Below are positions 2,498-50,328 of a stretch of 64,000 nt of DNA, piece by piece. The stretch covers positions 62,001 to 126,000 of the forward strand of contig CM039004.1 of the NCBI GenBank assembly GCA_017499595.2. Reading direction: 5' to 3'. Numbering within the stretch: the first letter of the stretch is position 1; each line of letters opens with the position of its first letter. Below the pieces are notes generated by a model. It saw nothing but the letters and a program-made list of their open reading frames with translations. It did not search any database and had not been told where the DNA came from. Position numbers and translations under genes: made by a program. Source of the DNA: Psilocybe cubensis (taxonomy: Eukaryota).

Positions 2498-2567
2498 TGG
2501 ACCTGATGAGCCTTATAAAAAGGCGAAAAAGTGGAAGGGAGCTTCTCCAAGCCCCCACTTTTGTCCA
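2498..2567 (+). ncRNA. Type I hammerhead ribozyme (element A terminal region)
   Basis: Stem I TGGAC/GTCCA, core CTGATGA, stem II GCCTT-ATAAA-AAGGC, GAAA, stem III AAGTGG/CCACTT, UH = TT at 2561-2562. Confidence 0.9.
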
Positions 2568-2597: not shown

Positions 2598-2632
2598 CCA
2601 ACTCGCAGCTCGCTTCGCTCGCTGCTCGTTGG
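2598..2632 (-). other. GAA-triloop hairpin with tandem GA/GA mismatches on the minus (cDNA) strand
   Basis: Minus strand reads CCAAC GA GCAGC GA GC GAA GC GA GCTGC GA GTTGG. Confidence 0.75.
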
Positions 2633-2635
2633 GCA

Positions 2636-2652
2636 CCCTAAAACCCTAACCC
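2636..2652 (+). repeat. Short telomeric junction capping 5'-truncated element B
   Basis: CCCTAAAACCCTAACCC is followed directly by GTCGACAACAAG, which corresponds to internal position ~42160 of full-length copy C. Confidence 0.8.
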
Positions 2653-2654
2653 GT

Positions 2655-5105
2655 CGACAACAAGAAGAAAGGGAAGGGGAGAGCTCCCGTCAAGAACGAT
2701 CCAAAGGGAAAGGGAAAGGCAAGAGCCTAAACGCGCGGTTTTCTGTTGCACCATTTACGTCGGTGAGACCCGCTTTCCCCAACTCTATTCCTGACGATAT
2801 ACTCACCATGACTAAAACAGACGCAGTTTCTTTTGTACACTTACATACGCCGATCTCATTCTTGTTGGCTGGCCAGTATCGTAGTAGTGTACATTGTAGT
2901 CCTGGTGTGGTGGTCCCTGTAGATATAGCAAACGATTTGTCGCTCGGACTTAATTATATGTTTTTTACTCTGCCTTCTCAAAGTCTGATCATGCAAGCAT
3001 GGAATGATTTTCAACGAAGAATAAGATGGCGTATCTATTTTTTGTTTAAGGAAGGCATGAATAAACCTTTTGATCCAGATTATGGAGTAAGTTCTAAGAA
3101 AAAAGAAAAACCTCCTGTATTACCGCAATTTATGGAACTTGGCCTTTCGATGGGACGTCGGTACGTGCAACGCACGATCGCAAGTATCCCGGAAGAAGCC
3201 CTTACGGAGATGCGAAAGCACGTGTTCTCTCCTAAAAGGGACAAGATCCGTAAGTTTCTTATCGATAACAACTATGTTATTACGATGACAGATAAGAATC
3301 TTGGCCTCGCGGTGTCTGAACGCAACTGGATATTAAGGAATGAGCTCAATCTTCTTGAAGATGAACGTAATTACGAAGAGTTAGAATTCGAAGTTGCGCA
3401 AGAAGTAATGAAGAGCAAAATGATCCAGATGCAAACTCTCGCACGTACCGTCGAAGATGAACATCTGTTTCTTTATGAACTTGGCTTAGCTCGATTTTTT
3501 CTATCAAATGTACCGGAAGACGGATCATCGTTCAAGTATCCTCAATTTCATGGTATACCTAAAATCCATAAGAAACCTACTGGATTTAGGCCCATAATTC
3601 CGTGTCATTCTGTAGTATTTAATCCTGCAGCCAAGTTTGTATCAAAAGAGCTTAAGCCGATTATTAAATCGACTCCTTCAATCATACACGGAACGAAGGA
3701 TCTCTTTACGAGATTAAGCCAATTGCGTATAGACTCCAAAAGACAATGGTATTTTGTCACTGGAGATGTAGTTGCTTTCTATCCCAATATCCCGTTGGAC
3801 TCGTGCATCGAAATCGTTTGTAGTATGTACGAGGAATGGTTACTCAACACTTCGGAAGAAAACACTGCATTAGCCCATATTAAACCAAATTCGTTAGAAA
3901 ATAACTTGATTAAATTGGGCATCTTTAAACGTGCTATCGAGATTGGCAATACGCAATTGATAACACAACATGGGTCTAGATATTTTAGACAAAAAAATGG
4001 CCTCGCAATGGGCGTCGCGGACTCTCCGGACCTTGCTAACCTCTTTGGAGCCCATTTTGAAATAAAGTCAAAAATCTTAGACCACCCGAATGTGGACTTC
4101 TATGGAAGGTACATCGACGATTGTTTCGCAATTGTTTACGCCAAGTCCGAAGCACTTGCACTTAATTTAATTAAAGAAACAATAAAGTTCGATGGTTGTG
4201 TTATCGAATGGGTTGTTTCCTCGTCGGGATGTCAATTTCTCGATGCTTTCATATTCAAGGAGTCTGGAAAACTTCATTGGAAGCCATTTGTCAAGACAGG
4301 AAACAACCGAGAACGAGTTCCATGGGTATCACATCATCCTTTGGACGTCAAACGTGGCGTCTACATTGGAGAGTTATCCAGGTTAGCCGTGCTATGTAGT
4401 ACCAAGGAAATCTACATCGGAGCAATTAGAGACCTTAACGCTCTCTATTTGATGCGCGGTTATCCCGAAAACCTAGTCATGTCTTGGTGTAAGAAGAATA
4501 TACAAGAACGTTGGGAAAAGCGATTCGCTTTACGAGTCGCAGAGCACGACGAATCCATTCTTGTACTTAAAACCAGGTTTGATCAGGTATGGAATTGGTT
4601 TTCAGCTGCTGAACTTGGAAAGACTGTTACCGAGTACTGGTCGGCATGGTATGAACATGCCGAGAAAGGTCTGTATAGTGCAGACTCGTCCAGACCCCTT
4701 ATCAAACCAGATCCAAATTACGTTCACGACCTCGATGATGTTCGCCCGGAGCTGTTCACACAGATCCTCGTGGACGGAGAAACTGAGTTCGTACCGGATT
4801 TGAGGAAGATAGGACTACTCGGAAGTCGTTGGATAGTATCGCGAAAACGCAATACTAATCTTTTCGACCTTGCAAATGTGTGGAAGAAAACAGTCTTTCG
4901 TAAACTGGATGAAGACATTGCTGAAAAAGGTGGTGTTGTTCCCGAAACTCAAAACGTTAATGAAACTTATCATTCTGCTTTAGTTGAAGCTGCTGAACAG
5001 ATAAGTATCGAAAGTGATAACGAGATAATACTTCATAGACGTTCAATCTCACAAGAGAGGGAACATCCAGAATTCGGCAGAATATCCAAATCTTACAACC
5101 GATGA
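2655..5105 (+). CDS. Penelope-like reverse transcriptase, intact frame but 5'-truncated, no endonuclease
   Basis: Motifs LSLGLNY, TDKNLGL, FHGIPKIHK, GDVVAFYPNIP, GLAMG, RYIDD, FLD and SHHP. The frame is open from the truncation point (ORF track starts it at 2763). Confidence 0.92.
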   Translation, partial: RQQEEREGESSRQERSKGKGKGKSLNARFSVAPFTSVRPAFPNSIPDDILTMTKTDAVSFVHLHTPISFLLAGQYRSSVHCSPGVVVPVDIANDLSLGLNYMFFTLPSQSLIMQAWNDFQRRIRWRIYFLFKEGMNKPFDPDYGVSSKKKEKPPVLPQFMELGLSMGRRYVQRTIASIPEEALTEMRKHVFSPKRDKIRKFLIDNNYVITMTDKNLGLAVSERNWILRNELNLLEDERNYEELEFEVAQEVMKSKMIQMQTLARTVEDEHLFLYELGLARFFLSNVPEDGSSFKYPQFHGIPKIHKKPTGFRPIIPCHSVVFNPAAKFVSKELKPIIKSTPSIIHGTKDLFTRLSQLRIDSKRQWYFVTGDVVAFYPNIPLDSCIEIVCSMYEEWLLNTSEENTALAHIKPNSLENNLIKLGIFKRAIEIGNTQLITQHGSRYFRQKNGLAMGVADSPDLANLFGAHFEIKSKILDHPNVDFYGRYIDDCFAIVYAKSEALALNLIKETIKFDGCVIEWVVSSSGCQFLDAFIFKESGKLHWKPFVKTGNNRERVPWVSHHPLDVKRGVYIGELSRLAVLCSTKEIYIGAIRDLNALYLMRGYPENLVMSWCKKNIQERWEKRFALRVAEHDESILVLKTRFDQVWNWFSAAELGKTVTEYWSAWYEHAEKGLYSADSSRPLIKPDPNYVHDLDDVRPELFTQILVDGETEFVPDLRKIGLLGSRWIVSRKRNTNLFDLANVWKKTVFRKLDEDIAEKGGVVPETQNVNETYHSALVEAAEQISIESDNEIILHRRSISQEREHPEFGRISKSYNR

Positions 5106-5139
5106 AAAGAATACTAGCGCGTAAGGCGTAAAGCATTAG

Positions 5140-5279
5140 AAAAAAACCCTAACCGTAAGTATTCCTTGCTACAAAGTAACAAACATCTACTTACAAGCAA
5201 CACATTGGATTAAATAGCTAAACCTAAACCTAAACCCTAAACCCTAAGCCCTAAGCCCTAACCTAACCCCAACCCTAAG
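5140..5279 (+). repeat. Internal degenerate telomere-like tract of element B, interrupted by a putative 63-nt intron (5155-5217)
   Basis: AAAAAAACCCTAACC|GTAAGT...TTAAATAG|CTAAACCTAAACCTAAACCCTAAACCCTAAGCCCTAAG. Confidence 0.8.
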
Positions 5280-5814
5280 CTAACTAAGTCTAACCTTAGT
5301 AGGAAGTAAGGTAGGCGTGTGAACTTCCGAACGGCATGTGATTGTGAAGGGCCGGATCTAATTTAGTACATGGGAAAAGTTACTTAGTACTTCGGGAAAA
5401 GTTCCTTAGTACCGTGGAAACATTTTTAATGGACCGGATCATGAACTGTCCAATTAAGATTCACAACAATCAATCAATTGATTGTTAGGTAAGGACCCAG
5501 GTAAGCTATTTATACTCTTGACATGAGAATATTCCCATGTCGCGGTTACTTGGAGCCACGTAACCAGAGTACTCTATATCCATGTGATTTACATCACAGT
5601 CAATAACCCACGATGTCAAAGAACAAAAGTGTTGGATCCACTTTTGACAGGTTACCATGTGCCACATCGACCCGTGACACTCTGTTCATCAGAGACCTGT
5701 CTAACTTGACAATAAACATTGACAGATTTGTGATAGTCGGTAAGATACATGACAGCTGCGCAGCTTCACTTCACGCGCTGTCATCGGATGTTCCAGAACA
5801 TTCCTTCTAAGAAT

Positions 5815-5879
5815 AGCCACTGAAGAGTCTATAAAGACGAAAGGGCTGGCTGCTGATAACAATCAACAGCCCTCTGGCT
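5815..5879 (+). ncRNA. Type I hammerhead ribozyme (element B terminal repeat), intact core
   Basis: Stem I AGCCA/TGGCT, core CTGAAGA, stem II GTCT-ATAA-AGAC, GAAA, stem III GGGCTG/CAGCCC, UH = TC at 5873-5874. Confidence 0.93.
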
Positions 5880-5909
5880 TCTTTCCATTTAACTCACAGT
5901 TTAAAACAA

Positions 5910-5944
5910 GTCGCTCGCACCTCGCTTCGCTCGGTGCTCGCTCC
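5910..5944 (-). other. GAA-triloop hairpin with three tandem GA/GA mismatches on the minus strand
   Basis: Minus strand reads G GA GC GA GCACC GA GC GAA GC GA GGTGC GA GC GA C. Copies at 41006-41040 and ~45417-45451. Confidence 0.75.
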
Positions 5945-5946
5945 CA

Positions 5947-5989
5947 CCCTAAACCCTAAACCCTAAACCCTAAAACATAACTAAACCCT
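5947..5989 (+). repeat. Buried telomeric tract (CCCTAAA)4 plus degenerate units; probable former chromosome end
   Basis: Direct reading. Lies exactly at the 3' end of element B. Confidence 0.85.
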
Positions 5990-12620: not shown

Positions 12621-13743
12621 GAAGGCCACATAGCGATGCACTAAAGTAACAAGGAGTGTAAGATGCAGATGGAGGGTATGGGTGACGAGTCACCTGTCTC
12701 AACGGGTGACGATGGAGAGGCGGTGGAGGGTGACCGGTGAAGAGCCAAGTGGGATAGACAATGACCATTGTATACAGTAAAATGATAAGGAATAATAGGA
12801 GAGTGGATAGAGATGATTCAAGCACAGCTATTCAATGAATGGGAATAGCAAGCGCTTCTTTCACGCACCTGTGCGCCCATCAAAAACACATTTCTTTCAT
12901 CCCGTCATCAAACTCTCCCTCACCCTGAGCTCACTGGCGCCGACTCACATTCTGGATCCCCACAGGACCATGCACCAGCGCACGCAAAAGTCTCGTTCCA
13001 GTCTGAGCAGCATGGAGCGCTTGTCCTGGGCCTTGTTTTCGACAGCGTGCCTCGAGGAGTGGGGATCAGGACAGACGTGTATGTGATTCTGATAGAGGTG
13101 TACCAGGTGATAGACTACGGACGACATATTCTCAGAGAGGCCTCAGCAATCGGATGAGGGTTGGTGGTTGTAGTGAGGGCTTGGAGATTGGTATAGAGAG
13201 ATAGAGGGTAAGACAATATTTACTCACTCATATCCATACACGCACACACTCGCCTTCTACAAAAAGCCCTCTTCATACCCCACACCTGCGCACGGGTGCA
13301 CGCACTAGGGGACCACTGCTCAATGGGCCCCGCCACACGCTGCGTCTACATGCCACTCGTCGTCGAATCCGTACTCGTCAATATCATGGCCGATGTGTTC
13401 ACGCGCATACAGTCCATCAGCATCAAGTTCAGGGAGCCTTGCAGGGGGCTCAAGCGGGAGCTCGGTTGGCAAGTGTGAATATTTCAATGAGCATCGACAA
13501 CCACATCGTGGCGGAGCGCGGAAGCTCCTCTCCTCTCCACAGTGAGTCCAATGGCCTTGTTTCCCTATCGAGCTCGCTGCTGGAATTGTCTTGAAAACAG
13601 GTGAGCTCGAGCTGTTGAATAGCGCGCAGTCACTTCCCACGTCGTTCTCAGCCACCCGACATGCTTCAAAGGTGAGTCGACACGCCCAGCGACCTCACCC
13701 TATCGTTGTAAACAACCCGCTACAGGTACAGACACAAACGTAA

Positions 13744-13896
13744 CCAACCCTAACCGGACTAATCTGTGCTTTTGTGGTATATCGAGTCCCAACCAACCCT
13801 AATGCTAAACCCTAAACCATCCTAATCTGTATTTTTGTGGTCACCACCAACCCTAAACTATAAACCCTAACCAATGCTAATATGTGCTTTGTGGTG
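13744..13896 (+). repeat. Telomere-like subtelomeric module, copy 1
   Basis: Three units of CCAACCCTAA...CTAAT(C/A)TGT...TTTGTGGT with embedded AAACCCTAAA. Second copy at ~33740-33926. Confidence 0.8.
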
Positions 13897-24958: not shown

Positions 24959-25257
24959 TGTAAGCCTGGAGACTTACCACACACGCAAACACGCACCGCA
25001 GGCGGACGCGCACAACAAAACGGCGCACAAACGCGAGCCCAGATTGGGTCTCGCTAATCAACTTACAAAGATATTGAGACCGAAAGACAAAAGGGAAACA
25101 AATGACCTTCGTTGCTTGACTAGAACGCTACGCAACGAAGGTAAATATATTATAGTAATTTACTACACATCATGTATAGACTAGAACGCTACGCAACGAA
25201 GAGAGCGTTGTCCCTTCTGTTTCAGCGAGTGAGGCTGCCGATCCCGACAGCCTTCCA
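24959..25257 (+). repeat. 5' LTR
   Basis: TGTAAGCCTGGAG...AGCCTTCCA. No differences from the 3' LTR seen by eye. Confidence 0.95.
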
Positions 25258-25314
25258 CTTTTTTTTTGAAGCCGACTACGTACCACCGCCGCACACTGTT
25301 ACCGTTACCGTAAA

Positions 25315-26976
25315 TTGCCCACACTGTATACCGAATCGTCGCGGACCACTCGAGCGTCGACCCAACGACGAGAAGAGCTTGGATTACCCTCAGAGCTTGT
25401 TCCAGGCCTTACTGTTTTCCGCAAACCACGAACTGAACCCCAAGGTCCACCGCCGTCACCGTCTGCCTCATCAGTGAATCTCAGCTTCTCAGATTCAGCG
25501 ACCTCTAACTCAGAGGACGAAGACCATACCGACACACACACTCCCACCGCGATCAGCAATCCGATCAGAGATCGACGCAATCGCCGCAACCCTAGGTATC
25601 CCACCGTTGTCAGAGTCAAGATGCCAAACGATGACGATAAACCGCTCGCTACGGTTGTCCAAAATAAGATGAAGGACGTACCGATTCTCACACCAGGGAA
25701 GATTGATCCTCTGGTAATGCAGCAGTGGGCGGTTGCTTGCCGCAAATACATGAAGCATGCAGCGAAGTCGCCAAAAGAAGTTGTGAAGTTTGTGGCCGAT
25801 GGAATGCAAGAACCAAGACTGGTGGCTTGGTATCAAGCAGATTCCACACGGATTGATGAACTGCCGCTGGAGAAATATCTGGAGGAGCTTCAAGTGCTCG
25901 TGTTGGAGAAGAAGTGGGCTCACAAAGTCCGTGAACAGATCCTAACGTCCTATCAGGGCGACCGTATTTTCATCGACTGGAAGATCGAAATGGAGAATTT
26001 GAATGCGATCTTGAAGACGATGGCACCAGAGGGGTACGCCTTCCCCAATGAAGCATTGAAGATACAGCTCGAGTCACACTTGAACCAGGAGCTTCGTGAG
26101 TCGCTCGGATTCGAGCCAGTCAAGGCCACCGAATTAGCCGCCTGGTCACTGGAAGTAAAGGACCGTGACGACCGCCTTCGTGAGGAACGTGCACGCACCC
26201 AACGTCAAATCGATGCGAGCTACGCAACACGAGTGGCTGCACGCAGGCTTGACAAGAAATCCTTGTTATTGCGTCTCTCGGATAGTCCAAATCCCAACCC
26301 TCGACCATCAAACAGCGAGTTCGATAATGGGGTGCGAAGGCCACTGTTACCTAAAATCACAGCAGAAGAACGTACATTACTCGACAATCACAATGGCTGT
26401 ACCAAATGCCGTCGATTTTACGTCAACCACCGCGCAAGGAACTGCCCAAATGGATGGCCAACAGCAAACGGATACAAGACCCTTACAGAAGAGATGGCAT
26501 TAAAGGCACAACGTGAGAAGGATGCCAAAGAGCAGGGCACTAGGAAGTCCTTGCCCGTGGGGCAAATCAATGCTTCCTCCTCATATACCGTGCATGACGA
26601 GGAGACAGATTCTGATTCGTACGTCCCTACCATGTCTATGACCGTTCCGCACCTCTTTCCAGTTATGGAGATTGAGGGGCCAGCGGTTGTGGATTTTCCT
26701 CTTCGCATTCGACCAATGCTTGATACGGGATCTCCTTCCACAGTGATTGACGAGACACTCGTCACCCAGCTCGGCCTCCCCCGATATCCACTACCACCCG
26801 CCGAGGACAATTTGTCATCGATTGACAATACACCGCTAGAATGCAGGGAGTATGTTAAGATTCGGGTTGCATCAGGAAACGGGAGCTGGATATCACGGAC
26901 ACATAAAGCAAAGATTCATCAAAACCTATCTATACCGCTGCTACTTGGATTGTCATTTCTTTCCCAGAAAATATAG
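25315..26976 (+). CDS. gag: Gag plus aspartic protease (start codon uncertain)
   Basis: Zinc knuckle CTKCRRFYVNHRARNC and protease motif MLDTGS. Ends at a frameshift within the protease C-terminus. Confidence 0.85.
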   Translation: MPTLYTESSRTTRASTQRREELGLPSELVPGLTVFRKPRTEPQGPPPSPSASSVNLSFSDSATSNSEDEDHTDTHTPTAISNPIRDRRNRRNPRYPTVVRVKMPNDDDKPLATVVQNKMKDVPILTPGKIDPLVMQQWAVACRKYMKHAAKSPKEVVKFVADGMQEPRLVAWYQADSTRIDELPLEKYLEELQVLVLEKKWAHKVREQILTSYQGDRIFIDWKIEMENLNAILKTMAPEGYAFPNEALKIQLESHLNQELRESLGFEPVKATELAAWSLEVKDRDDRLREERARTQRQIDASYATRVAARRLDKKSLLLRLSDSPNPNPRPSNSEFDNGVRRPLLPKITAEERTLLDNHNGCTKCRRFYVNHRARNCPNGWPTANGYKTLTEEMALKAQREKDAKEQGTRKSLPVGQINASSSYTVHDEETDSDSYVPTMSMTVPHLFPVMEIEGPAVVDFPLRIRPMLDTGSPSTVIDETLVTQLGLPRYPLPPAEDNLSSIDNTPLECREYVKIRVASGNGSWISRTHKAKIHQNLSIPLLLGLSFLSQKI

Positions 26977-27029
26977 TCATTGATACTCGGAAACGAACGG
27001 CTATTGATAAGCGTTCTGGATATGATTTA

Positions 27030-30000
27030 ATGAATCCACCAACAAGAGATACTCTTGCTGCAAAGAGCACTGCTATCTGTGAGGGATTAAAGACGGACGC
27101 AGGGATAGATCAGGACAAACAGAGAAGATCGGCCATGGCAAAGGAACAACATCTGCGATCACAGGTCGAACCAGAGCGTGCAAAACAGTTGGTAGCAGCG
27201 ATTAATGAGCAAATCAGCAACATTCAATTTCAGCAGAAGCTATTGCGCATGGACAAAGAAATGAAAGAGAAATATCGAGATCGCTTTCCTGACCGCCTAC
27301 CAGACAACGTAGATATTCCTGATCACATATATCACCGGATACGATTGGTGGACAAAGACAAGATACATGCGGGTCGAGGATACGCTGCTCCAAAGAAATA
27401 TCACGATGCATGGAAGAAGCTTCTTGACGAGCATCTGGCCGCGGGACGTATCCGACCATCCTCATCTGAATATGCATCGCCAGCATTCTGCATTCCAAAG
27501 TATAAAAACGGAGTACCTGACCTGTCAGTACCACCACGATGGGTAAACGATTATCGGGAGATCAATAAGAACACTATATCTGACAAATTTCCACTTCCAC
27601 GAGTAGATGACATTCTTGCAGACTGTGGAAAAGGCAAATTCTTTGCAAAATTAGACATGACCAACAGTTTCTTCCAAACACGAGTACACCCAGACGACAT
27701 TCACTTGACAGCTGTGCGTACACCATGGGGCCTATACGAATGGGTTGTGATGCCAATGGGCGGGAAGAATGCGCCAGCTACACATCAACGGCGAATGACA
27801 GATGCATTACGGGAACTCATTGCACAAGTATGTCACGTCTATCTAGACGATATTGTGATCTGGGCAGACACCTTGGAACAACTATCAGAACGAGTAGAAA
27901 AGGTCTTGAAAGCGCTTCGGAAAGCGGGACTTTATTGTAATGCGAAGAAATCAGTCCTTTTTGCAACTGAAATTATCTTTCTGGGACATGTTATTTCCGC
28001 AAACGGCATTCACGCAGACCCTGCAAAGACAGACCGAATCAAGAAATGGCCACGACCAACAAACGCAACAAATGTACGTGGATTTCTAGGACTCACAAGA
28101 TATCTGGCTGTCTTTCTCCCTGCGCTCGCGGAACATACTAGCATCTTATCACCACTGACAAGCAAAGAATGCGATCGCGACTTCCCCAAATGGACCGCCG
28201 ATCATGATCGAGCCTTTAACGCAATCAAGGAACTGGTTACAGGGGCGGAATGCCTCACTGTCATTGATTACGATGACCCTGAAGGGAAGATCTACGTGAC
28301 AACAGATGCAAGCGATAGGCGAACAGGTGCAGTCTTGAGTTTTGGAAAAGATTGGGAATCAGCAAGACCAGTTGCATACGATTCATATCAGCTGAAAGAC
28401 GCAGAAAAGAACTATCCAACACACGAAAAAGAACTCCTGGCAATTGTGAAAGCATTGAAAAAGTGGCGCAGCAGTCTTTTAGGGGTCAAATTTGAAGTCT
28501 ACACTGACCACCGAACATTGGAATATTTTCAGGCGCAGAAAGAGATGTCACGTCGGCAGATGAGATGGTCGATGTACATGGCAGATTTCGATTTCGAGAT
28601 ATGTTACATCCGAGGGGAGGAAAATGTAGCAGCAGATGCCCTATCAAGGATGCCGGACGAAGAGCCAAATTCAAGATTTGCAGCCTGTGCATTGGCCTAT
28701 ACACGGAACCCTAATCGCGCCCCAAGAGGATTTGTGGGATCAGTGTTATCTATTGAAATTGACCAGGAGTTTGTACAGGCAATAAAGGATGGGTATGATG
28801 CCGATCCGTTTGTTAAGCAATTTCGAGATGGAATGCAAAAGCACAGTCTAACAGGAGCACGAGAAGAAGAAGGGCTGATTTATCTTGGACAAAGACTAGT
28901 AATCCCAAACGATAGGAAGATCCGAGAACGACTGTATTATCTGGCTCACGATGTTTTGGGTCATTTTGGATTTGACAAATCGTATGAAGCATTACACGGG
29001 TCGTACTACTGGCCTAACATGCGAAGAGATCTCGAAAAGGCATATATTCCTTCGTGCACGGAATGTCAGCGAAACAAAGACCGAACAACCAAACCTACAG
29101 GACCACTTCACCCACTTCCTGTCCCAGACAAACGACTCACGTCAGTTGCATTGGACTTTATTGGACCATTGCCCGAGGAGAAGGAACGCGACACAATACT
29201 CACGATGACTTGCCGTTTAGGTACTGATATACAACTGATTGCAACTCACTCCTCATGGACCACAGAACAAATTGCGCACAAAGTTGTTGACCACTGGATT
29301 TGCGAAAATGGATTGATGGAAGAATTAATCTGTGATCGCGACACAATCTTTACATCAGATCTATGGACTGCAATATGCAAGATTTTGAATGTAAAGATCA
29401 AGATGTCGACCGCCTATCATCCAGAAACCGATGGAGCGAGCGAGAGAACAAATAAAACCGTCAATCAAGCAATACGATACTATGTGGATAGAAACCAAAA
29501 AGGCTGGTTAGACAAGCTCCCTCGCATTCGGTTCGCAATGATGAACACAGTAAATGCATCGACAGGATACTCGGGTTTCCAACTGAAGACAGGTCGATCT
29601 CCACGGATTATTCCTACAATGGCAAAGGCAAACAAGGATGCACCAATGGTGGAAACATCAGCAAGAGAGATCATTCGGAAAATTGAGATCGATGTGAAGG
29701 AAGCGCAGGATGCCTTACATACAGCCAAGATCCGACAAGCAGCTCAGGCAAATGAGCAGCGAGGTAACGAGATCGTGTACCAACCAGGCGATATGGTAAT
29801 GCTCTCTACAAAGAACCGGCGACGCAACTACAAACGGAAGGGGAAGAAAAGGGTGGCAAAGTTCATGCCACGGTTTGATGGACCGTACGTTGTAGAGGCT
29901 GCCTTCCCCGAACGATCAGAATATACACTGAGGTTACCAAACAACCCAAAGACGTTCCCGGGGTTCCATGCCAGCCTTTTAAAACCATTCGTGCCGAATG

Positions 30001-30248
30001 ATCCAGAGAAATTTCCGGACAGAGAATTGGTACGACCACCAACAGTGATAACCGAGGACGGGGTGGAAGAGACAGTGATAGAGAAAATTGTGGATGCGAG
30101 AAAACGTGGTAGAGGGATGCAATATCTGGTACGATGGGCTGGATTTGGGAAGGAGCATGATGAGTGGCTTCCAGGGCGTATGCTTGAAGAGAATGAAGCA
30201 CTGGATAGATGGGAAGAGGAAGAGGCCGAGGACAAAGAAGACGAATAA
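27030..30248 (+). CDS. pol: Pol: RT, RNase H, integrase, chromodomain
   Basis: RT YLDD, RNase H TDAS and YTDH, integrase HHCC (H..GH..C..C) and D..D..E core, GPY motif, chromodomain YLVRWAGFGKEHDEW. Confidence 0.95.
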   Translation: MNPPTRDTLAAKSTAICEGLKTDAGIDQDKQRRSAMAKEQHLRSQVEPERAKQLVAAINEQISNIQFQQKLLRMDKEMKEKYRDRFPDRLPDNVDIPDHIYHRIRLVDKDKIHAGRGYAAPKKYHDAWKKLLDEHLAAGRIRPSSSEYASPAFCIPKYKNGVPDLSVPPRWVNDYREINKNTISDKFPLPRVDDILADCGKGKFFAKLDMTNSFFQTRVHPDDIHLTAVRTPWGLYEWVVMPMGGKNAPATHQRRMTDALRELIAQVCHVYLDDIVIWADTLEQLSERVEKVLKALRKAGLYCNAKKSVLFATEIIFLGHVISANGIHADPAKTDRIKKWPRPTNATNVRGFLGLTRYLAVFLPALAEHTSILSPLTSKECDRDFPKWTADHDRAFNAIKELVTGAECLTVIDYDDPEGKIYVTTDASDRRTGAVLSFGKDWESARPVAYDSYQLKDAEKNYPTHEKELLAIVKALKKWRSSLLGVKFEVYTDHRTLEYFQAQKEMSRRQMRWSMYMADFDFEICYIRGEENVAADALSRMPDEEPNSRFAACALAYTRNPNRAPRGFVGSVLSIEIDQEFVQAIKDGYDADPFVKQFRDGMQKHSLTGAREEEGLIYLGQRLVIPNDRKIRERLYYLAHDVLGHFGFDKSYEALHGSYYWPNMRRDLEKAYIPSCTECQRNKDRTTKPTGPLHPLPVPDKRLTSVALDFIGPLPEEKERDTILTMTCRLGTDIQLIATHSSWTTEQIAHKVVDHWICENGLMEELICDRDTIFTSDLWTAICKILNVKIKMSTAYHPETDGASERTNKTVNQAIRYYVDRNQKGWLDKLPRIRFAMMNTVNASTGYSGFQLKTGRSPRIIPTMAKANKDAPMVETSAREIIRKIEIDVKEAQDALHTAKIRQAAQANEQRGNEIVYQPGDMVMLSTKNRRRNYKRKGKKRVAKFMPRFDGPYVVEAAFPERSEYTLRLPNNPKTFPGFHASLLKPFVPNDPEKFPDRELVRPPTVITEDGVEETVIEKIVDARKRGRGMQYLVRWAGFGKEHDEWLPGRMLEENEALDRWEEEEAEDKEDE

Positions 30249-30300
30249 CGCCATAGAGAACAGACCCTTTCACGATGGAATTCTTCAGAGGGGGGAGGGG

Positions 30301-30599
30301 TGTAAGCCTGGAGACTTACCACACACGCAAACACGCACCGCAGGCGGACGCGCACAACAAAACGGCGCACAAACGCGAGCCCAGATTGGGTCTCGCTAAT
30401 CAACTTACAAAGATATTGAGACCGAAAGACAAAAGGGAAACAAATGACCTTCGTTGCTTGACTAGAACGCTACGCAACGAAGGTAAATATATTATAGTAA
30501 TTTACTACACATCATGTATAGACTAGAACGCTACGCAACGAAGAGAGCGTTGTCCCTTCTGTTTCAGCGAGTGAGGCTGCCGATCCCGACAGCCTTCCA
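30301..30599 (+). repeat. 3' LTR
   Basis: Copy of 24959-25257, preceded by the PPT and followed by the TSD. Confidence 0.95.
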
Positions 30600-33739: not shown

Positions 33740-33926
33740 AACCCTAATCTGCTACATATATAATTGTATTTACCAACCCTAACCAGCCTAATCTGTGCTT
33801 TTATGGTATTATCAAATCCCAACCAGCCCTAAAACCTAAACCCTAAACCATCCTAATCTGTATTTTTGTGGTCACCACCAACCCTAAACCATAAACCCTA
33901 ACCAACGCTAATATGTGTTTTGTGGT
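33740..33926 (+). repeat. Telomere-like subtelomeric module, copy 2
   Basis: Homologous to 13744-13896 (CCATCCTAATCTGTATTTTTGTGGTCACCACCAACCCTAAAC is shared). Confidence 0.8.
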
Positions 33927-34679
33927 GACAACATTAAGCGCCTGACAAAGAAACAAGGAATAGGATTGAAAACCATGAAATACAAAGACATAGTACAGGA
34001 CAGGGTTACCCAATGAGTGCATGCTAATCCCTCTTTACAGTCATATCGACCCACACGGGTCAAATTTTTCAACAAGCTCACCAACAATTGCACCTATGCA
34101 CCTATGCACATCCTCCCCGCCTCCCGATTCGCGATTCGAGCCCATCCCAATCGCCTTCATTCCACACGGCACATCCCGCTCTTAGCACCTAACTACTCGG
34201 CTCCGCTAGCGAGCTTTAAATTTTTTTTTTCTTCAAATCCCTAGAAGATTTGTGAAATGAGAAACAACGACACTCGTTGCAGCATGCTACGTACGTGGAA
34301 TGTGGTTCTGCACTGTTCTCGGGGATTAGAGGGGTGGGGCGTTTTGGATGGTGCATTTGAGTGGGTGTGGATAGGAGATTTCGGTGTGGATGTGGGGTTG
34401 GTGTAGTGTAGAAGAGATGCGGGTGTCTTGTACATGCCCTCATCGTCTAATCGACACTCTTACTCCAATATGCTGATGTTCAGGAGCCCCTGAGGGATGT
34501 TGTTTGCTTGATTCAGTCTGTGAGTGAGTGTAAAGTTGTACTGCAGCTGCTAATCCATTGTGGAAATCAATATTGTGGAGTTGGATGAAGTTAAGCGCCG
34601 AAATGAACGAGCTCTATATACATATAACTGAATGCAACACCACCACTCCCACTCCCCAACCTCGTAACAGGCTGCAACT

Positions 34680-39744: not shown

Positions 39745-40375
39745 CGGGGGTGACGGCGCAATGACACGCAGCAGAATGCATGTCGTGGTGGACGGCGAGT
39801 GGACGCGACGGCGGGACGGCAGCCGGCGAGGGAAGACGGCGCGGCGGCAGCAACAGGTGTTGAGTGGAGGCGGCAGCAGCAGCAGCGGCCCGGAGGTGGC
39901 AGCGCGACGACACGCAGCGGCGAGCGAAGGCGTCGGGCAGGTGGCGAGCACAAGTGTCGGGATGGCAAGCGCAAGCGTCGGGAACAGGCAGGAGGCCGGC
40001 CTCCACTTGCACGTACGACGCGCATACAAATCGAGGCTGGCCTCAGGTGGCCTCGACGCGTTTATTTTAAGACGGAGGCCGGCCTCCAGTGCCTGTCAAA
40101 ATTTATTTTTAGTCGGAGGCCGGCCTCCAGTGCCTGTCAAAAGTTATTTTTAGACGGAGGCCGGCCTCCAGTGGCCTCCATCAATTTGGAGGCCGGCCTC
40201 CATAAATTACATATTTAATTATGTAGCACCTCCGTATGTACAAAATAAATTATTTTAAAAGTGGATTTGGGGGTTTTCGGGGTTGAGGAATCCGAATCTG
40301 GCATCAGATTTCCAGAATTCTAAACAGGAGGCGCAATGCAACGAAGGCCCCCCCTTTGGGGGGGAATAAGCTTAG
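39745..40375 (+). mobile_element. Element X terminal block, copy X3 (more diverged; left boundary approximate)
   Basis: Five GGAGGCCGGCCTCC palindromes, hairpin and AATAAGCTTAG end, joined to the terminal repeat of PLE C. Confidence 0.8.
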
Positions 40376-40910
40376 CTAACTAAGTCTAACCTTAGTAGGA
40401 AGTAAGGTAGGCGTGTGAACTTCCGAACGGCATGTGATTGTGAAGGGCCGGATCTAATTTAGTACATGGGAAAAGTTACTTAGTACTTCGGGAAAAGTTC
40501 CTTAGTACCGTGGAAACATTTTTGATGGACCGGATCATGAACTGTCCAATTAAGATTCACAACAATCAATCAACTGATTGTTAGGTAAGGACCCAGGTAA
40601 GCTATTTATACTCTAGACATGTGAATATTCCCATGTCACGGTTACTCGGAGCCACGTAACCAGAGTACGCTATATCCATGTGATTCACATCACAGTCAAT
40701 AACCCACGATGTCAAAAGAACAAAAGTGTTGGATCCACTTTTGACAGGTTACCATGTGCCACATCGACCCGTGACACTCTGTTCATCAGAAACCTGTCTA
40801 ACTTGACAATAAACATTGACAGATTTGTGATAGTTGGTAAGATACATGACAGCTGCGCAGCATCACTTCACGCGCTGTCATCGGATGTCTAGAACATTCC
40901 TTCTAAGAAT

Positions 40911-40974
40911 AGCCACTGAAGAGTCTATAAAGACAAAAGGGCTGGTTGTGAACAACAGTTCACAGTCCTCTGGC
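40911..40974 (+). ncRNA. Hammerhead ribozyme, mutated core (GAAA to AAAA)
   Basis: AGCCA CTGAAGA GTCT-ATAA-AGAC AAAA GGGCTG...CAGTCC TC TGGC. Confidence 0.8.
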
Positions 40975-41081
40975 CTTCTTTCCATTTAACTCACAGTTTA
41001 AACAAGTCGCTCGCACCTCGCTTCGCTCGGTGCTCGCTCCCACCCTAAACCCCTCAACTTTGCTATTACCCAACAGCTACT

Positions 41082-42237
41082 ATGTCTTCCACCTACTCTG
41101 CTGCATTCTCTCGTGCCATGTCCCCCACCCTGGACGCACTCACCCAGGCTGTCGTCAACAATACAGTCTTTGGCGTCAACGACGAAGCTGGCCGCCACAA
41201 CGCCCTCATCGACGAGTTAGCCACTGTCGTCATCAAAAAAATAGCTGAGTGCCGCTCCATTGACCAGATCATAGACTGCGTCTTTTTTGACTATTGTGCT
41301 GCCCTTAGGGAGTTTCTCCTCAACCTCGCATCGTGGTGCGACAAGAGGGAAACAGTCAAGGCAAGCCTCGAGCGCCTTGAACTTGCCGTCAGTGCAGGCA
41401 ACACCCCCAATCGCCTTCGGGTGAAGGCTCCCGAGTTCCAACTCACGAAGGAATTCGCGGATGCCGGGTCAGCGGAGGCTCTTCGAGTCTCCTCTACGTT
41501 CTCCACCACTCGTGACGTCTTCCAAAAGGCGATCAACGACGGCGCCATCCAGGCGAAAAAGGACGAACTGGCCTTTTGGGATGATAAATGCGCACTCAAT
41601 AACTGTTATGAAGCTGCTGCCCTCATTGTTAAGACAACTTACGATGATCGCAAATCCAGCTATAAGCTCCCCGTTTTCTCTACAGACAACAAGGGAGTTC
41701 GTCGAATAACAGATTGGGTAGTGTCACCGCAGAAGAAGGCTGAATGCAGCGCATTGCAAACTATTTTGCCAGCCATCTTCTCTCATATCAAACAGATTGT
41801 CAACTTGCGCCACCGCGCTTTGGCAATCAAGATTGAGAAAAAGCGGTCGACTGCGGCAACAGCCGATGTCGAGATGGCCGACGCGACCAAACCAGGTCCG
41901 TCGATTCAATCCCTTATTGATAAGGGCTTGAATGCACGTCTCAAAAAGCTCAACCTTGGATCTGTGGGCAAGAAGGCAAGTTTTCGTAACCCTTCACCCA
42001 TAATTTTGGATACTAATTACTACTCTAATTATCCAGACTTTGTCTGGCCAGAATTCGTCCAAGGCTCCTCAACCTCAGGCCAAGAAAGCTGGCCCTTCAA
42101 AATTCAAACCCTTGTCGACACCTTCGCAGAAGAAGCCCCAAACCAAGGTTTCCAACAAGGTCGACAACAAGAAGAAAGGGAAGAGGAGAGCTCCCGTCAA
42201 GAACAATCCAAAGGGAAAGGGAGAGGCAAGAGCCTAG
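41082..42237 (+). CDS. PLE ORF1 (predicted 364 aa if the GC-AG intron 41976-42036 is spliced), with a basic C-terminal tail
   Basis: ATG 41082, AAG|GCAAGT donor, CTAAT branch, CCAG acceptor. Exon 2 reads TLSGQNSSK...KKKGKRRAPVK...ARA*. The stop position is conserved in copy B (TAA 2727-2729). Confidence 0.65.
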
Positions 42238-44609
42238 ACGCGCGGTCTAATGTAGTATCACTTACGTCGGTAAGACCCGCCTTCCCCAACTCTATTCCTG
42301 ACGATATACTCACCATGACTAAAACAGACGCAGTTTCTTTCGTACACTTACATACTCCAATATCATTCTTGTTGGCTGGCCAGTATCGTAGTAGTGTACA
42401 TTGTAGTCCTGGTGTTTCTGTCCCTGTTAATGTAGCAAACGATCTCTCTCTCGGACTTAATTATATGTTTTTCACTCTGCCTTCTAAAAGTCTGATCATG
42501 CAAGCATGGAATGATTTTCAACGAAGAATAAGATGGCGTATCTATTTTTTGTTTAAAGAAGGCATGAATAAACCTTTTGATCCAGATTATGGAGTAAGTT
42601 CTAAGAAAAAAGAAAAACCTCCTGTATTACCGCAATTTATGGAACTTGGCCTTTCGATGGGACGTCGGTACGTGCAACGCACGATCGCAAGTATCCCGGA
42701 AGAAGCCCTTACGGAGATGCGAAAGCACGCGTTCTCTCCTAAAAGGGACAAGATCTGTAAGTTTCTTATCGATAACAACTATGTTATTACGATGACAGAT
42801 AAGAATCTTGGCCTCGCGGTGTCTGAACGCGACTGGATACTAAGGAATGAGCTCAATCTTCTTGAAGATGAATGTAACTATGAAGAGTTAGAATTCGAAG
42901 TTGCGCAAGAAGTTATGAAGAGCAAAATGATTCAGATGCAAACTCTCGCACGTACCGTCGAAGATGAACATCTGTTTCTATTTGAACTTGGGTTATCTCG
43001 ATTCTTTCTATCGAATGTACCGGAAGACGGATCATTGTTCAAGTATCCTCAATTTCATGGTATACCTAAAATCCACAAGAAACCTACTGGATTTAGGCCC
43101 ATAATTCCGTGTCACTCTGTAGTTTTTAATCCTGCAGCCAAGTTTGTATCAAAAGAGCTTAAGCCGATTATTAAATCGACTCCTTCAATCATTCACGGAA
43201 CAAAGGATCTCTTTACGAGATTAAGCCAATTGCGTATAGACTCCAAAAGACAATGGTATTTTGTCACTGGAGATGTAGTTGCTTTCTATCCCAATATCCC
43301 GTTGGACTTGTGCATCGAAATCGTTTGTAGTATGTACGAGGAATGGTTACTCAACACTTCGGAAGAAAATACTGCATTAGCCCATATTAAACCAAATTCG
43401 TTAGAAAATAACTTGATTAAATTGGGCATCTTTAAACGTGCCATCGAGATTGGCAATACGCAATTGATAACACAACATGGGTCTAGATATTTTAGACAAA
43501 AAAATGGCCTCGCAATGGGCGTCGCGGATTCTCCGGACCTTGCTAACCTCTTTGGAGCCCATTTTGAAATAAAGTCAAAAATCTTAGACCACCCGAATGT
43601 GGACTTCTATGGAAGGTACATTGACAATTGTTTCGCAATTGTTTACGCCGAGTCCGAAGCACTTGCACTTAATCTTATTAAAGAAACAATAAAGTTCGAT
43701 GGTTGTGTTATCGAATGGGCTGTTTCCTCGTCGGGATGTCAATTTCTCGATGCTTTTATATTCAAGGAGTCTGGAAAACTTCATTGGAAGCCATTTGTCA
43801 AGACAGGAAACAACCGAGAATGAGTTCCATGGGTATCACATCATCCTTTGGACGTCAAACGTGGCGTCTACATTGGAGAGTTATCCAGGTTAGCCGTGCT
43901 ATGTAGTACCAAGGAAATCTACATCGGAGCAATTAGAGACCTTAACGCTCTCTATTTGATGCGCGGTTATCCCGAAAACCTAGTCATGTCTTGGTGTAAG
44001 AAGAATATACAAGAACGTTGGGAAAAGCGATTTGCTTTACGAGTCGCAGAGCACGACGAATCCATTCTTGTACTTAAAACCAGGTTTGATCAGGTATGGA
44101 ATTGGTTTTCAGCTGCTGAACTTGGAAAGACTATTACCGAGTACTGGTTGGCATGGTATGAACATGCCGAGAAAGGTCTGTATAGTGCAGACTCGTCCAG
44201 ACCCCTTATCAAACCAGATCCAAATTACGTTCACGACCTCGATGATGTCCGCCCGGAGCTGTTCACACAGATCCTCGTGGACGGAGAAACTGAGTTCGTA
44301 CCGGATTTGAGGAAGATAGGACTACTCGGAAGTCGTTGGATAGTATCGCAAAAACGCAATACTAATCTTTTCGACCTTGCAAATGTGTGGAAGAAAACAG
44401 TTTTTTGTAAACTGGATGAAGACATTGCTGAAAAAGGTGGTGTTGTTCCCGAAACTCAAAACGTCAATGAAACTTATCATTCTGCTCTAGTTGAAGCTGC
44501 TGAACAGATAAGTATCGAAAGTGATAACGAGATAATACTTCATAGACGTTCAATCTCACAAGAGAGGGAACATCCAGAATTTGGCAGAATATCCAAATCT
44601 TACAACTGA
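41082..44609 (+). pseudogene. ORF1-RT read-through frame of PLE C, disrupted
   Basis: Single frame from 41082. Relative to copy B it has CGA to TGA at 43821-43823 and catalytic YIDD changed to YIDN. Confidence 0.88.
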
Positions 44610-44646
44610 TGAAAAGAATACTAGCGCGTAAGGCGTAAAGCATTAG

Positions 44647-44786
44647 AAAAAAACCCTAACCTTAAGTATTCCTTGCTATAAAGTAACAAACATCTACTTA
44701 CAAGCAACACATTGGATTAAATAGCTAAACCTAAACCTAAACCCTAAACCCTAAACCCTAAGCCCTAACCTAACCCCAACCCTAAG
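44647..44786 (+). repeat. Internal telomere-like tract of element C; the putative intron 44662-44724 has a mutated donor (TTAAGT)
   Basis: Homologous to 5140-5279. Confidence 0.78.
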
Positions 44787-45321
44787 CTAACTAAGTCTAA
44801 CCTTAGTAGGAAGTAAGGTAGGCGTGTGAACTTCCGAACGGCATGTGATTGTGAAGGGCCGGATCTAATTTAGTACATGGGAAAAGTTACTTAGTACTTC
44901 GGGAAAAGTTCCTTAGTACCGTGGAAACATTTTTGATGGACCGGATCATGAACTGTCCAATTAAGATTCACAACAATCAATCAACTGATTGTTAGGTAAA
45001 GACCCAGGTAAGCTATTTATACTCTAGACATGTGAATATTCCCATGTCGTGGTTACTCGGAGCCACGTAACCAGAGTACGCTATATCCATGTGATTCACA
45101 TCACAGTCAATAACCCACAATGTCAAAAGAACAAAAGTGTTGGATCCACTTTTGACAGGTTACCATGTGCCACATTGACCCGTGACACTCTGTTCATCAG
45201 AAACCTGTCTAACTTGACAATAAACATTGACAGATTTGTGATAGTTGGTAAGATACATGACAGCTGCGCAGCATCACTTCACGCGCTGTCATCGGATGTC
45301 TAGAACATTCCTTCTAAGAAT

Positions 45322-45385
45322 AGCCACTGAAGAGTCTATAAAGACAAAAGGGCTGGTTGTGAACAACAGTTCACAGTCCTCTGGC
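45322..45385 (+). ncRNA. Hammerhead ribozyme, mutated core (GAAA to AAAA)
   Basis: Same sequence as 40911-40974. Confidence 0.8.
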
Positions 45386-45453
45386 CTTCTTTCCATTTAA
45401 CTCACAGTTTAAACAAGTTGCTCGCACCTCGCTTCGCTTGGTGCTCGCTCCCA

Positions 45454-45490
45454 CCCTAAACCCTAAACCCTAAACCCTAAACCCTAAACC
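45454..45490 (+). repeat. Buried telomere (CCCTAAA)5CC; probable healed break
   Basis: Perfect repeats abut the predicted third exon of the minus-strand zinc-finger gene. Confidence 0.9.
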
Positions 45491-49849: not shown

Positions 49850-50328
49850 GACTAGTGCGTGTCCACCATCGTCTTCTGTTTCCCTCCTGCGTCGCTTCGC
49901 TGGTTCAGATGGATCTGGAATCAAACGGTTAGTACATGTAACCGCTATAAAACACCCTACTGACCTTCCATCCCCGTTTTTTGTTGGAAAATGCTTGGAA
50001 GTTTGGTGTCTGGGTGAGGGAAGGGAACAGGATAGGCCCACAAACAACGCTGGGGGTGGAAGGGGTTTATATCTGAGAACGACGCCCTACGCTCTGCGAT
50101 GGAAGGCGAGAATATTTGCCCTCCAGAAGACGTATAGGGGTGTAAAGAAGAGATCGATAGTTAATTGACTGTCGTTCCGATAAGAGGAAAGGGCTGAATT
50201 AATCAGACGCCTGAGTGCACGACAGTCCGAAGGCGTCCCAATCAAAAATCGCCCCCGACACAATAGACGGCGGCAAGGCGTTGTGCGCAAGCATATTGGG
50301 AGGCCAGGTCGTGTGTAACGCGCACAAA

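Follow-up and report, generated by a model that had tools for sequence, protein, structure and literature searches.

A conserved, covarying hairpin beside the telomere-complementary tract of endonuclease-less Penelope-like elements and its possible fold in first-strand cDNA

The element stack and its terminal hairpins

The 64,000-nucleotide stretch of Psilocybe cubensis contig CM039004.1 analysed here (assembly GCA_017499595.2, positions 62,001 to 126,000; referred to below as the window) is a subtelomeric head-to-tail pile of endonuclease-less Penelope-like elements (PLEs), in which a short hairpin lies between a hammerhead motif and a telomere-complementary tract. Endonuclease-less PLEs are the closest retroelement relatives of telomerase, and this hairpin is the subject of the present report. 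Two families, A and B, adjoin the hairpins, and their reverse transcriptases (RTs) are only 48% identical. The open reading frames (ORFs) concerned gave weak RVT_1 matches in Pfam (26.8 and 21.7 bits, below the 29.6 cutoff); RVT_1 alone was found in the 835-aa and 924-aa plus 261-aa ORFs at E ≤ 0.01, and no GIY-YIG endonuclease domain was found there. The PLE ORF has hundreds of homologs, the best named of which is a P. cubensis 'reverse transcriptase domain-containing protein' at 97–98% identity. Placed by their architecture rather than against reference sequences, the elements are Coprina-type endonuclease-deficient PLEs.

Family A is represented by an ORF at 2–1651 and a tail reaching 2632. 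Family B is present as a full element at about 41053–45481 and as a 5'-truncated copy of it at 2653–5974, which in a self-comparison aligns to 42160–45481 with 96.8% identity over 3325 bp. The full element is bounded by tail copies of ~680 bp (40371–41052 and 44782–45463) in a pseudo-long-terminal-repeat (pseudo-LTR) arrangement; these two tails are 98.8% identical to each other and 96.2% identical to that of the other B copy. Both families share the order ORF, internal degenerate telomere-like tract, tail, hammerhead, hairpin and telomere-complementary tract. Short telomeric tracts are present at the element junctions of the stack, with its 5' truncations, and all 25 CCCTAAA-type matches in the whole window are on the + strand. 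The telomere-type repeat here is the 7-mer CCCTAAA (TTTAGGG), as at 2229–2256, 5947–5975 and 45454–45488; related metagenome loci have junction repeats of both the CCCTAA and the CCCTAAA type.

Four copies of the hairpin are present in the window, one in family A and three in family B (Table 1). The initial annotation had listed three of them at exactly the positions where they were found here, and had overlooked the fourth, at 45417–45451. Its statement that the motif lies between the hammerhead and the terminal repeats in both PLE families holds for all four copies: each starts ~30 nt past the predicted hammerhead cleavage site and ends 3–5 nt before CACCCTAAA (CCCTAAA repeats). The telomere tract that follows differs in length among the B copies, with 1.5, 4 and 5 repeats, as would be expected if each insertion primed there. 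The inner stems of the two families differ by one compensatory change (G-C to C-G) and the outer stems are distinct. The TC/TC mismatches, which had been described as invariant, are intact in three of the four copies, whereas one of the two C>T changes in copy 45417–45451 converts the inner TC/TC block to TC/TT; this copy belongs to a B element whose ORF has an in-frame stop (43821–43823). The 12-mer TCGCTTCGCTCG, allowing at most one mismatch, matches the window five times against 0.17 expected, and none of 100 shuffles reached five; the fifth match, at 49892, proved unrelated to the hairpin. A covariance model, whose own training set included three of the four copies, gave four matches in the window, all on the + strand, with E-values of 5e-10 to 6e-11.

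The hammerhead core (CUGAnGA...GAAA), helices I–III, the NUH site and the cleavage positions were assigned by eye. Rfam gave no matches in the window at the gathering score. In E-value mode, sub-threshold matches were obtained for the family A motif (Hammerhead_HH9, 19.7 bits against a gathering score of 52) and for the family B motif at 5815–5879 (RAGATH-1-hammerhead, 26.8 bits; Hammerhead_3, 19.5 bits). The two hammerhead-like motifs of the full B copy have a core G to A change (CAAAA) and on that ground are probably inactive; judged by these cores and the in-frame stop, the full-length B copy itself looks inactive. Both motifs (40930–40939 and 45341–45350) also have a C>T change in helix III, which puts a G·U pair into the RNA.

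The 3' module resembles that of the PLEs Athena, Coprina and Terminons, in which a type-I hammerhead with a long helix III is followed by C-rich telomere-complementary repeats, as the putative hammerheads are here, and which share the head-to-tail stacks at the chromosome end, the telomeric repeats capping 5' truncations and the lack of an endonuclease domain. It differs in that the published repeats are placed 'immediately downstream' of the hammerhead, with no further element mentioned (PMC6431247, PMC8557442), whereas here 60–75 nt separate the cleavage site from the repeats, and about half of this distance is taken by the conserved hairpin. The word 'hairpin' is absent from PMC8557442, PMC4209133 and PMC13159263 and is used for Helitrons only in PMC6431247, and literature searches yielded no earlier description of the element; figures or supplements of the primary papers (Gladyshev & Arkhipova 2007, Arkhipova et al. 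2017) may show it.

Table 1. Hairpins, hammerhead motifs and telomere-like tracts of the PLE stack (window coordinates; lower case, unpaired or mismatched positions).
Feature	Position	Strand	Description
Hammerhead, family A	2499..2566	+	GGAC CUGAUGA ... CGAAA; helix III AAAGUGG/CCACUUU; predicted cleavage after U2562; helix I 3' strand GUCC
Hairpin, family A	2598..2632	+	CCAAC tc GCAGC tc GC ttc GC tc GCTGC tc GTTGG; minimum-energy fold on both strands; covariance model 43.8 bits
Telomere-complementary tract	2633..2652	+	gCACCCTAAAACCCTAACCC; joins element A to the 5'-truncated B copy starting at 2653
Internal degenerate telomere-like tract, template-encoded	5218..5280	+	Between ORF and ~650-nt tail bearing hammerhead and hairpin
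Hammerhead, family B copy 1	5815..5879	+	AGCCA CUGAAGAG ... CGAAA; helix III GGGCUG/CAGCCC; predicted cleavage after C5874, then UGGCU
Hairpin, family B copy 1	5910..5944	+	G tc GC tc GCACC tc GC ttc GC tc GGTGC tc GC tc C; covariance model 46.8 bits
Telomeric junction, B copy 1	5945..5975	+	CA + (CCCTAAA)4
Hammerhead-like motif, 5' pseudo-LTR of full B copy	40911..40975	+	Core CAAAA against CGAAA in copy 1
Hairpin, family B copy 2	41006..41040	+	Sequence as copy 1; in 5' pseudo-LTR; followed by CACCCTAAACCCC (41041-41053); ORF ATG at 41082
Hammerhead-like motif, 3' pseudo-LTR of full B copy	45322..45386	+	Same CAAAA core change
Hairpin, family B copy 3	45417..45451	+	C>T at CpG 45419 and 45439; covariance model 42.3 bits
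Telomeric junction, B copy 3	45452..45490	+	CA + (CCCTAAA)5

Conservation, covariation and strand bias of the hairpin

An alignment of 41 RTs was used to retrieve 80 metagenome loci, whose own RTs are 33–72% identical to those of the window. All of these relatives are metagenome contigs, mostly of 4–6 kb. Of the 80 loci, 53 were classified: a hairpin of the same kind occurs at the same place in 35, and in 18 there is another hairpin, or none that is recognisable (L010 being assigned only via its near-identity to L047). The hairpins of 25 of the 35 loci are of the 'TC GC TNC GC TC' type, and the other 10 have a second apex class, (A)CC TTC GG(C), which lacks the inner TC/TC block, so that the invariance of these mismatches does not extend to all relatives. 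The second class was found by reading the regions that follow the hammerheads and by strand-neutral hairpin scans. Hairpins of both apex classes all lie just 5' of the telomere-like word on the RNA-sense strand, at a distance of 1–21 nt (median 6, n = 32), and the distance from the hammerhead core to the hairpin is 59–97 nt (median 84, n = 26). Locus L041 (437), in which the hairpin follows a telomere tract rather than a hammerhead, is among the 33 hairpins of the strand count below and was excluded from the 35 loci, the set of 30 hairpins used for folding energies and the distance table. In several modules (window 2593, L025 and L051 among them) the automatic picker took a wrong small hairpin when the telomere-word pattern fired early, and these rows were not used. 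Full-length copies, both in the window and in many of the loci, additionally have the hairpin with one telomere-like repeat 30–40 nt before the ORF start.

The arms of these hairpins are unrelated in sequence between lineages yet complementary within each (GCACGAC/GTCGTGC, ACAAACT/AGTTTGT, AAAAAATC/GATTTTTT, AACAAATCC/GGATTTGTT, CACTGC/GCAGTG). The stems span 7–26 positions per arm, and extra TC/TC blocks lie at varying positions, 0–5 per lineage, with up to five in L064 (2-yy-2-yy-5-yy-2-yy-2-yy-2, the digits giving paired positions and yy a block). On an RT tree of 77 rows (FastTree), the TC-block class needs at least 7–8 changes; its members straddle the midpoint root and are intermixed with those of the second apex class, a distribution which indicates that the feature is old or has been repeatedly exchanged.

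Covariation of the stems, claimed at first from the two families of the window, extends well beyond them. In an ungapped alignment of 45 columns and 20 distinct hairpins, 71.8% of cells are paired, against 50.4 ± 2.2% after shuffling (0 of 500 shuffles reaching the observed value) and 19.3–37.9% in slid registers. The covariation score is 0.449, against 0.149 shuffled (again 0 of 500) and 0.04–0.14 in slid registers, and both sides change in 12 of 14 pairs. The initial annotation had proposed a covariance model across PLE termini; the model that was built gave 39 matches at E ≤ 1 over 428,043 nt searched on both strands, 34 of them at E ≤ 5.3e-6, most being training sequences or duplicates together with a few new copies. 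All 39 are on the RT-sense strand. This model (R1) did not recover the CC-TTC-GG apex class.

Which strand carries the selected fold was judged from the mismatches within the stems. To delimit the hairpins, each Watson-Crick pair was scored +1 and any other cell −1, a scheme that favours neither strand. Read on the + strand, 33 distinct hairpins comprise 308 Watson-Crick cells, 80 T·C/C·T, 13 A·C/C·A and 4 others, with no G·T and no G·A cell among the 405, all of these being counts of cells, not of independent events. Thus the 93 interpretable non-Watson-Crick cells are without exception T·C or A·C on the + strand and turn into G·A or G·T when the minus strand is read, which bears out the earlier argument that the mismatches become tandem GA/GA pairs there. 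The A·C cells are estimated to come from ~9–11 separate lineages, and an A·C beside CC-TTC-GG is kept in four separate clades. Composition is not the cause of the bias, because the same arms read out of register give more G·T (216) than A·C/C·A (135), together with 531 Watson-Crick, 350 T·C/C·T, 161 G·A and 647 other cells. Nor is it a simple G>A error bias, because the close pairs L064/L066 and L022/L023 differ by T/C on the + strand.

Helix III of the hammerheads, a + strand RNA structure in the same loci, has no one-sided bias: 212 Watson-Crick, 9 T·C/C·T, 14 G·A, 5 A·C/C·A, 5 G·T and 9 other cells were counted there. Fisher's test separates the hairpins from it both in A·C versus G·T (p = 0.0075) and in Y·Y versus R·R (p = 1e-11), a comparison whose use lies in the absence of one-sided bias in helix III, where the stem finder over-extends into loops and the non-Watson-Crick cells are in part noise. 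The tandem blocks of the hairpins (n = 38) are TC/TC in 35 cases, TC/TT in two and CA/CA in one, and 68 of 72 block contexts read Y-tc-R, that is, Y-GA-R on the minus strand. In the 33 hairpins, which were chosen for a T-N-C loop, N is T in 27, G in four and A in two, and the corresponding G-N-A triloop of the minus strand is closed by 5'C/3'G in 33 of 33. In a count independent of this selection, hairpins with C-GNA-G on the minus strand numbered 98 in the sense and 24 in the antisense orientation, and those adjoining telomere-like words 41 and 0. By sequence, then, the minus strand is a d(C-GNA-G) mini-hairpin with 'CGAG blocks', for which a sheared geometry is assumed. Asymmetries of this kind in covarying stems, of A·C versus G·U and of Y·Y versus R·R, can reveal which strand is under selection.

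Minimum-energy folding returns this hairpin whichever strand is used. With RNA parameters the minus strand is the more stable in 28 of 30 hairpins, with two ties, and the means are −16.0 and −11.7 kcal/mol. For L064, the lineage with the most blocks, the + strand fold equals shuffled sequences (z −0.02) and the minus strand fold is better than them (z −2.74) under these parameters.

Interpretation and alternative explanations

Both motifs of the minus strand are known from DNA biophysics. The mini-hairpin d(GCGAAGC) reportedly melts at 76.5 °C, and the motif is reported to stay folded in 7 M urea, to be nuclease-resistant and to be poorly bound by single-strand-binding protein; hairpins with TTC loops were not nuclease-resistant, and r(GCGAAAGC), which corresponds in RNA to the tetraloop form, has a melting temperature of 39 °C (PMC13037366, a review). 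In GNA loops, it makes a difference which way round the closing C-G pair is placed (PMC3201870). Hairpins of d(CGAG)n consist of C:G, sheared G:A, A:G and G:C blocks with melting temperatures of 50–77 °C in a pyrimidine-GA-purine context (PMC10085684). The stability of d(GCGAAGC) and of sheared tandem G-A pairs in DNA, to which the initial annotation appealed, is thus documented. The PLE minus strand matches the mini-hairpins d(GCGNAGC) and d(GCGNNAGC) with GC-GAA-GC (also in GCA and GTA variants) or CC-GAA-GG (PMC13037366). With the d(CGAG)n hairpins of the AUTS2 promoter it shares the C:G, sheared G:A, A:G, G:C unit in its pyrimidine-GA-purine context (PMC10085684); it differs in that the PLE blocks, 0–5 per lineage and with a geometry assumed from their sequence, alternate with covarying Watson-Crick stems.

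Endonuclease-less PLEs are modelled as priming on telomeric overhangs (PMC6431247, PMC8557442). On this model the telomeric G-overhang would pair with the CCCUAAA tract of the element RNA and be extended by the RT, and the complement of the hairpin would make up the first 30–60 nt of the telomere-primed cDNA. Since the hairpin lies only 1–21 nt 5' of the CCCUAAA tract, a purine-rich fold would be made as this first stretch, a geometry that agrees with the one first put forward. The minus-strand fold would comprise a C-GNA-G apex, usually GC-GAA-GC or CC-GAA-GG, on a Watson-Crick stem with Y-GA-R/Y-GA-R tandems and occasional G·T wobbles. On the RNA, where the stem is interrupted by U·C/C·U and A·C mismatches, the fold would be much weaker, so the template could be read through while the product could lock. 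With slightly better than even confidence, we lean towards the reading that the hairpin serves telomere-attaching endonuclease-less PLEs as a conserved cis-element, whose selected fold would be that of the first-strand cDNA and which would work as DNA.

As to how it would work, we infer that the nascent cDNA, once freed from the pyrimidine-rich RNA, folds in vivo and resists nucleases and single-strand-binding proteins. The protective or protein-binding role that the initial annotation had in mind is conjectural. The fold might stabilise or mark the new telomere-cDNA junction, act as a product-side ratchet, or serve as a single-strand DNA signal, for instance for complementary-strand priming as at the phage G4 and ssiA origins. 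At those signals (phage G4, ssiA/RepB') the mini-hairpin, including CCGAAGG, sits on a DNA strand that is likewise single-stranded before duplex conversion (PMC13037366), whereas the present case concerns a eukaryotic retroelement cDNA in which the mini-hairpin would cap a long stem. Because the hairpin also stands 30–40 nt before the ORF start, the fold would occur near the 3' end of a full-length cDNA as well, where it could be useful as a priming signal. The specific proposal that the cDNA encodes a functional structure of mini-hairpin and CGAG blocks, weak on the RNA, which excludes RPA and nucleases as a single-strand signal, positions complementary-strand priming or acts as a ratchet releasing the template, is tentative and on balance rather improbable. 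An early minus-strand cDNA hairpin with a role of its own is known in cTAR, the cDNA copy of the trans-activation response hairpin of human immunodeficiency virus type 1 (PMC2709575); cTAR differs in being the plain complement of a functional RNA hairpin that serves strand transfer, with neither a purine-mismatch asymmetry nor a telomere junction. If the DNA reading is correct, these elements make natural eukaryotic use of two motifs, the GNA mini-hairpin and the CGAG blocks, that are known mostly from biophysics. Being deeply conserved and adjoining the priming site, with a sequence logic that points to the cDNA and not to the RNA template, the hairpin also offers a mutable handle on how endonuclease-less PLEs start copying at chromosome ends and complete their insertion.

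A number of observations weigh against a fold selected as DNA. Under DNA parameters the advantage of the minus strand, seen in five of five hairpins tested, amounts to only 0.4–1.6 kcal/mol, and for L064 neither strand beats shuffled sequences (z +0.98). ViennaRNA's DNA parameters assign whole hairpins only −3.7 to −9.7 kcal/mol, and DNA nearest-neighbour parameters do not reproduce the published stability, so that a high DNA stability would have to be taken by analogy from published measurements of short model oligonucleotides that are similar and not identical. In most cases the RNA hairpin of the + strand is still what minimum-energy prediction gives, with z of −1.8 to −4.2 in four of five tested, and a role at the RNA level is therefore conceivable. 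The strand bias is a bias of cells rather than of independent events, and the second apex class, 10 of the 35 loci, does without the inner block. Other lineages have hairpins of other types at the same place: GCGCU-GAAG-AGCGC in L009, GUGUU-GAAAA-AACAC in L017 and L019, UGUAGU...ACUACA in L018 and GCAC-UUUU-GUGC in L002 and L047. These are without bias or have purine loops on the + strand, so the general requirement could be for an RNA stem-loop. Folding of the cDNA requires prior removal of the RNA:DNA hybrid, yet no RNase H domain was found by Pfam in the PLE ORFs. Finally, the single PLE to have been studied in vitro, Poseidon of Anolis (PAc), begins copying inside an AC-rich RNA stem-loop that lies 3' of the hammerhead, and it can do without cleavage by the ribozyme (PMC11167929).

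The alternative that survives best is an RNA element of the + strand, in which the hairpin binds or positions the RT beside an internal initiation site and the U·C/C·U loops and the UNC loop are protein contacts; we consider it unlikely but a serious candidate. It can be likened to the PAc stem-loop, to the 3' stem-loops of stringent long interspersed nuclear elements or to a boundary helix like that of telomerase RNA. The order of hammerhead, hairpin and telomere tract is that of hammerhead, stem-loop and initiation site in PAc, and in both cases the stem-loop stands just past the hammerhead at the pseudo-LTR/ORF junction and adjoins the RT start site (PMC11167929). PAc differs in that initiation takes place inside the loop and is not target-homologous, whereas in the present elements the primer should anneal to the CCCUAAA tract that adjoins the hairpin, and the bias of the present stems points to the DNA copy rather than the RNA. 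An RNA-level role would also suit the predicted + strand fold, the persistence of some hairpin at this place in lineages without TC blocks, and the tail-only units with hammerhead and hairpin that have been mobilised alone (40371–41052). Against it, an RNA stem should tolerate G·U and avoid A·C, and the opposite was found, with 0 G·U and 13 A·C in the 405 stem cells; the number and position of the TC/TC blocks vary in a way that fits pair-equivalents better than a fixed protein contact; and the RNA fold of L064 is no better than that of shuffled sequence.

The boundary version of this idea has a further difficulty. In telomerase RNA, a template-boundary helix lies a few nucleotides 5' of the telomere-complementary template on an RNA copied by TERT, an RT related to that of PLEs, and it stops copying. 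The placement of the PLE hairpin is similar, but a boundary should stop the RT, and here copying runs through the hairpin in every insertion: all four window copies and the metagenome loci hold the hairpin and the sequence upstream of it in the inserted DNA, which is why the RT must read through it. A template boundary element was rejected on this ground.

A hairpin selected on a minus-strand RNA, such as a transcript resembling telomeric repeat-containing RNA (TERRA) or another antisense transcript that runs from the telomeric tract into the 3' end and acts for example as a silencing or regulatory signal, is very improbable, as the minus strand is made as DNA in the retroelement cycle and no antisense transcript is known or came to light in this analysis. 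Such an RNA would account for the RNA-parameter energies of −10 to −23 kcal/mol that beat the + strand in 28 of 30 hairpins; the C-GNA-G apex, however, is reported to be much more stable as DNA than as RNA (76.5 °C, compared with 39 °C for a tetraloop relative; PMC13037366). Least credible of all is the absence of any structural function, as in a (TCGC)n/(CGAG)n microsatellite-like by-product, whose self-complementary GC would let TCGC repeats like those read in the core mimic a hairpin with TC/TC 'mismatches', or in a duplex-DNA palindrome for a dimeric protein: the spacers between TC blocks are complementary and not repeated (AC/GT, ACC/GGT, GCAC/GTGC, AAAAAATC/GATTTTTT, AACAAATCC/GGATTTGTT), a duplex-DNA protein site would conserve its sequence rather than let both half-sites change together, and both versions were rejected as largely refuted by covariation far in excess of the shuffled and slid controls.

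Internal tracts, tail-only units and other repeats

The internal telomere-like tract of the truncated B copy (Table 1) has homologs at 44728–44780 in family B and at 2225–2268 in family A, and it falls within the 3325-bp alignment of the two B copies described above. Both families have, between A7CCCTAACC and the internal (CCCTAAA)n, a stretch of 63–65 nt delimited by GTAAGT...AG (~2160–2224, 5155–5217 and 44661–44727); if this were an intron, splicing would join both halves into one continuous telomere-like tract. Tail-only units, consisting of tail, hammerhead, hairpin and telomere tract, are found at 40371–41052, 5275–5956 and 44782–45463 and in locus L025 at 5585 and 6292. They can stack in tandem and start exactly where the internal telomere-like tract ends, which suggests that cDNAs ending inside this tract, with a ready-made TTTAGGG 3' end, are preferentially recovered.

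Contigs from sequencing runs indicate that the element is multi-copy in related genomes, and they run from the hairpin-CACCCTAAACCC junction on into an ORF start (loose ends at 5955/5956). Several unit-length contigs of 4.1–5.1 kb (L017, L027, L057, L018 and L011) have a hammerhead at both ends, a terminal redundancy that is expected from tandem arrays, pseudo-LTR arrangements or circular templates.

Elsewhere in the window, a Ty3/gypsy chromovirus at 24959–30599 encodes protease, RT, RNase H, integrase and a chromodomain, and is a very recent insertion into the subtelomere because its 299-bp LTRs are 100% identical. A 155-bp repeat (13743–13896 and 33772–33927, 91.7% identical) consists of degenerate telomere-like words (CCAACCCTAA...CTAATCTGT...) and is unrelated to the PLE tails. 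A 900-bp inverted repeat lies at 47096–47994 and 48950–49849, with arms that are 97.4% identical.

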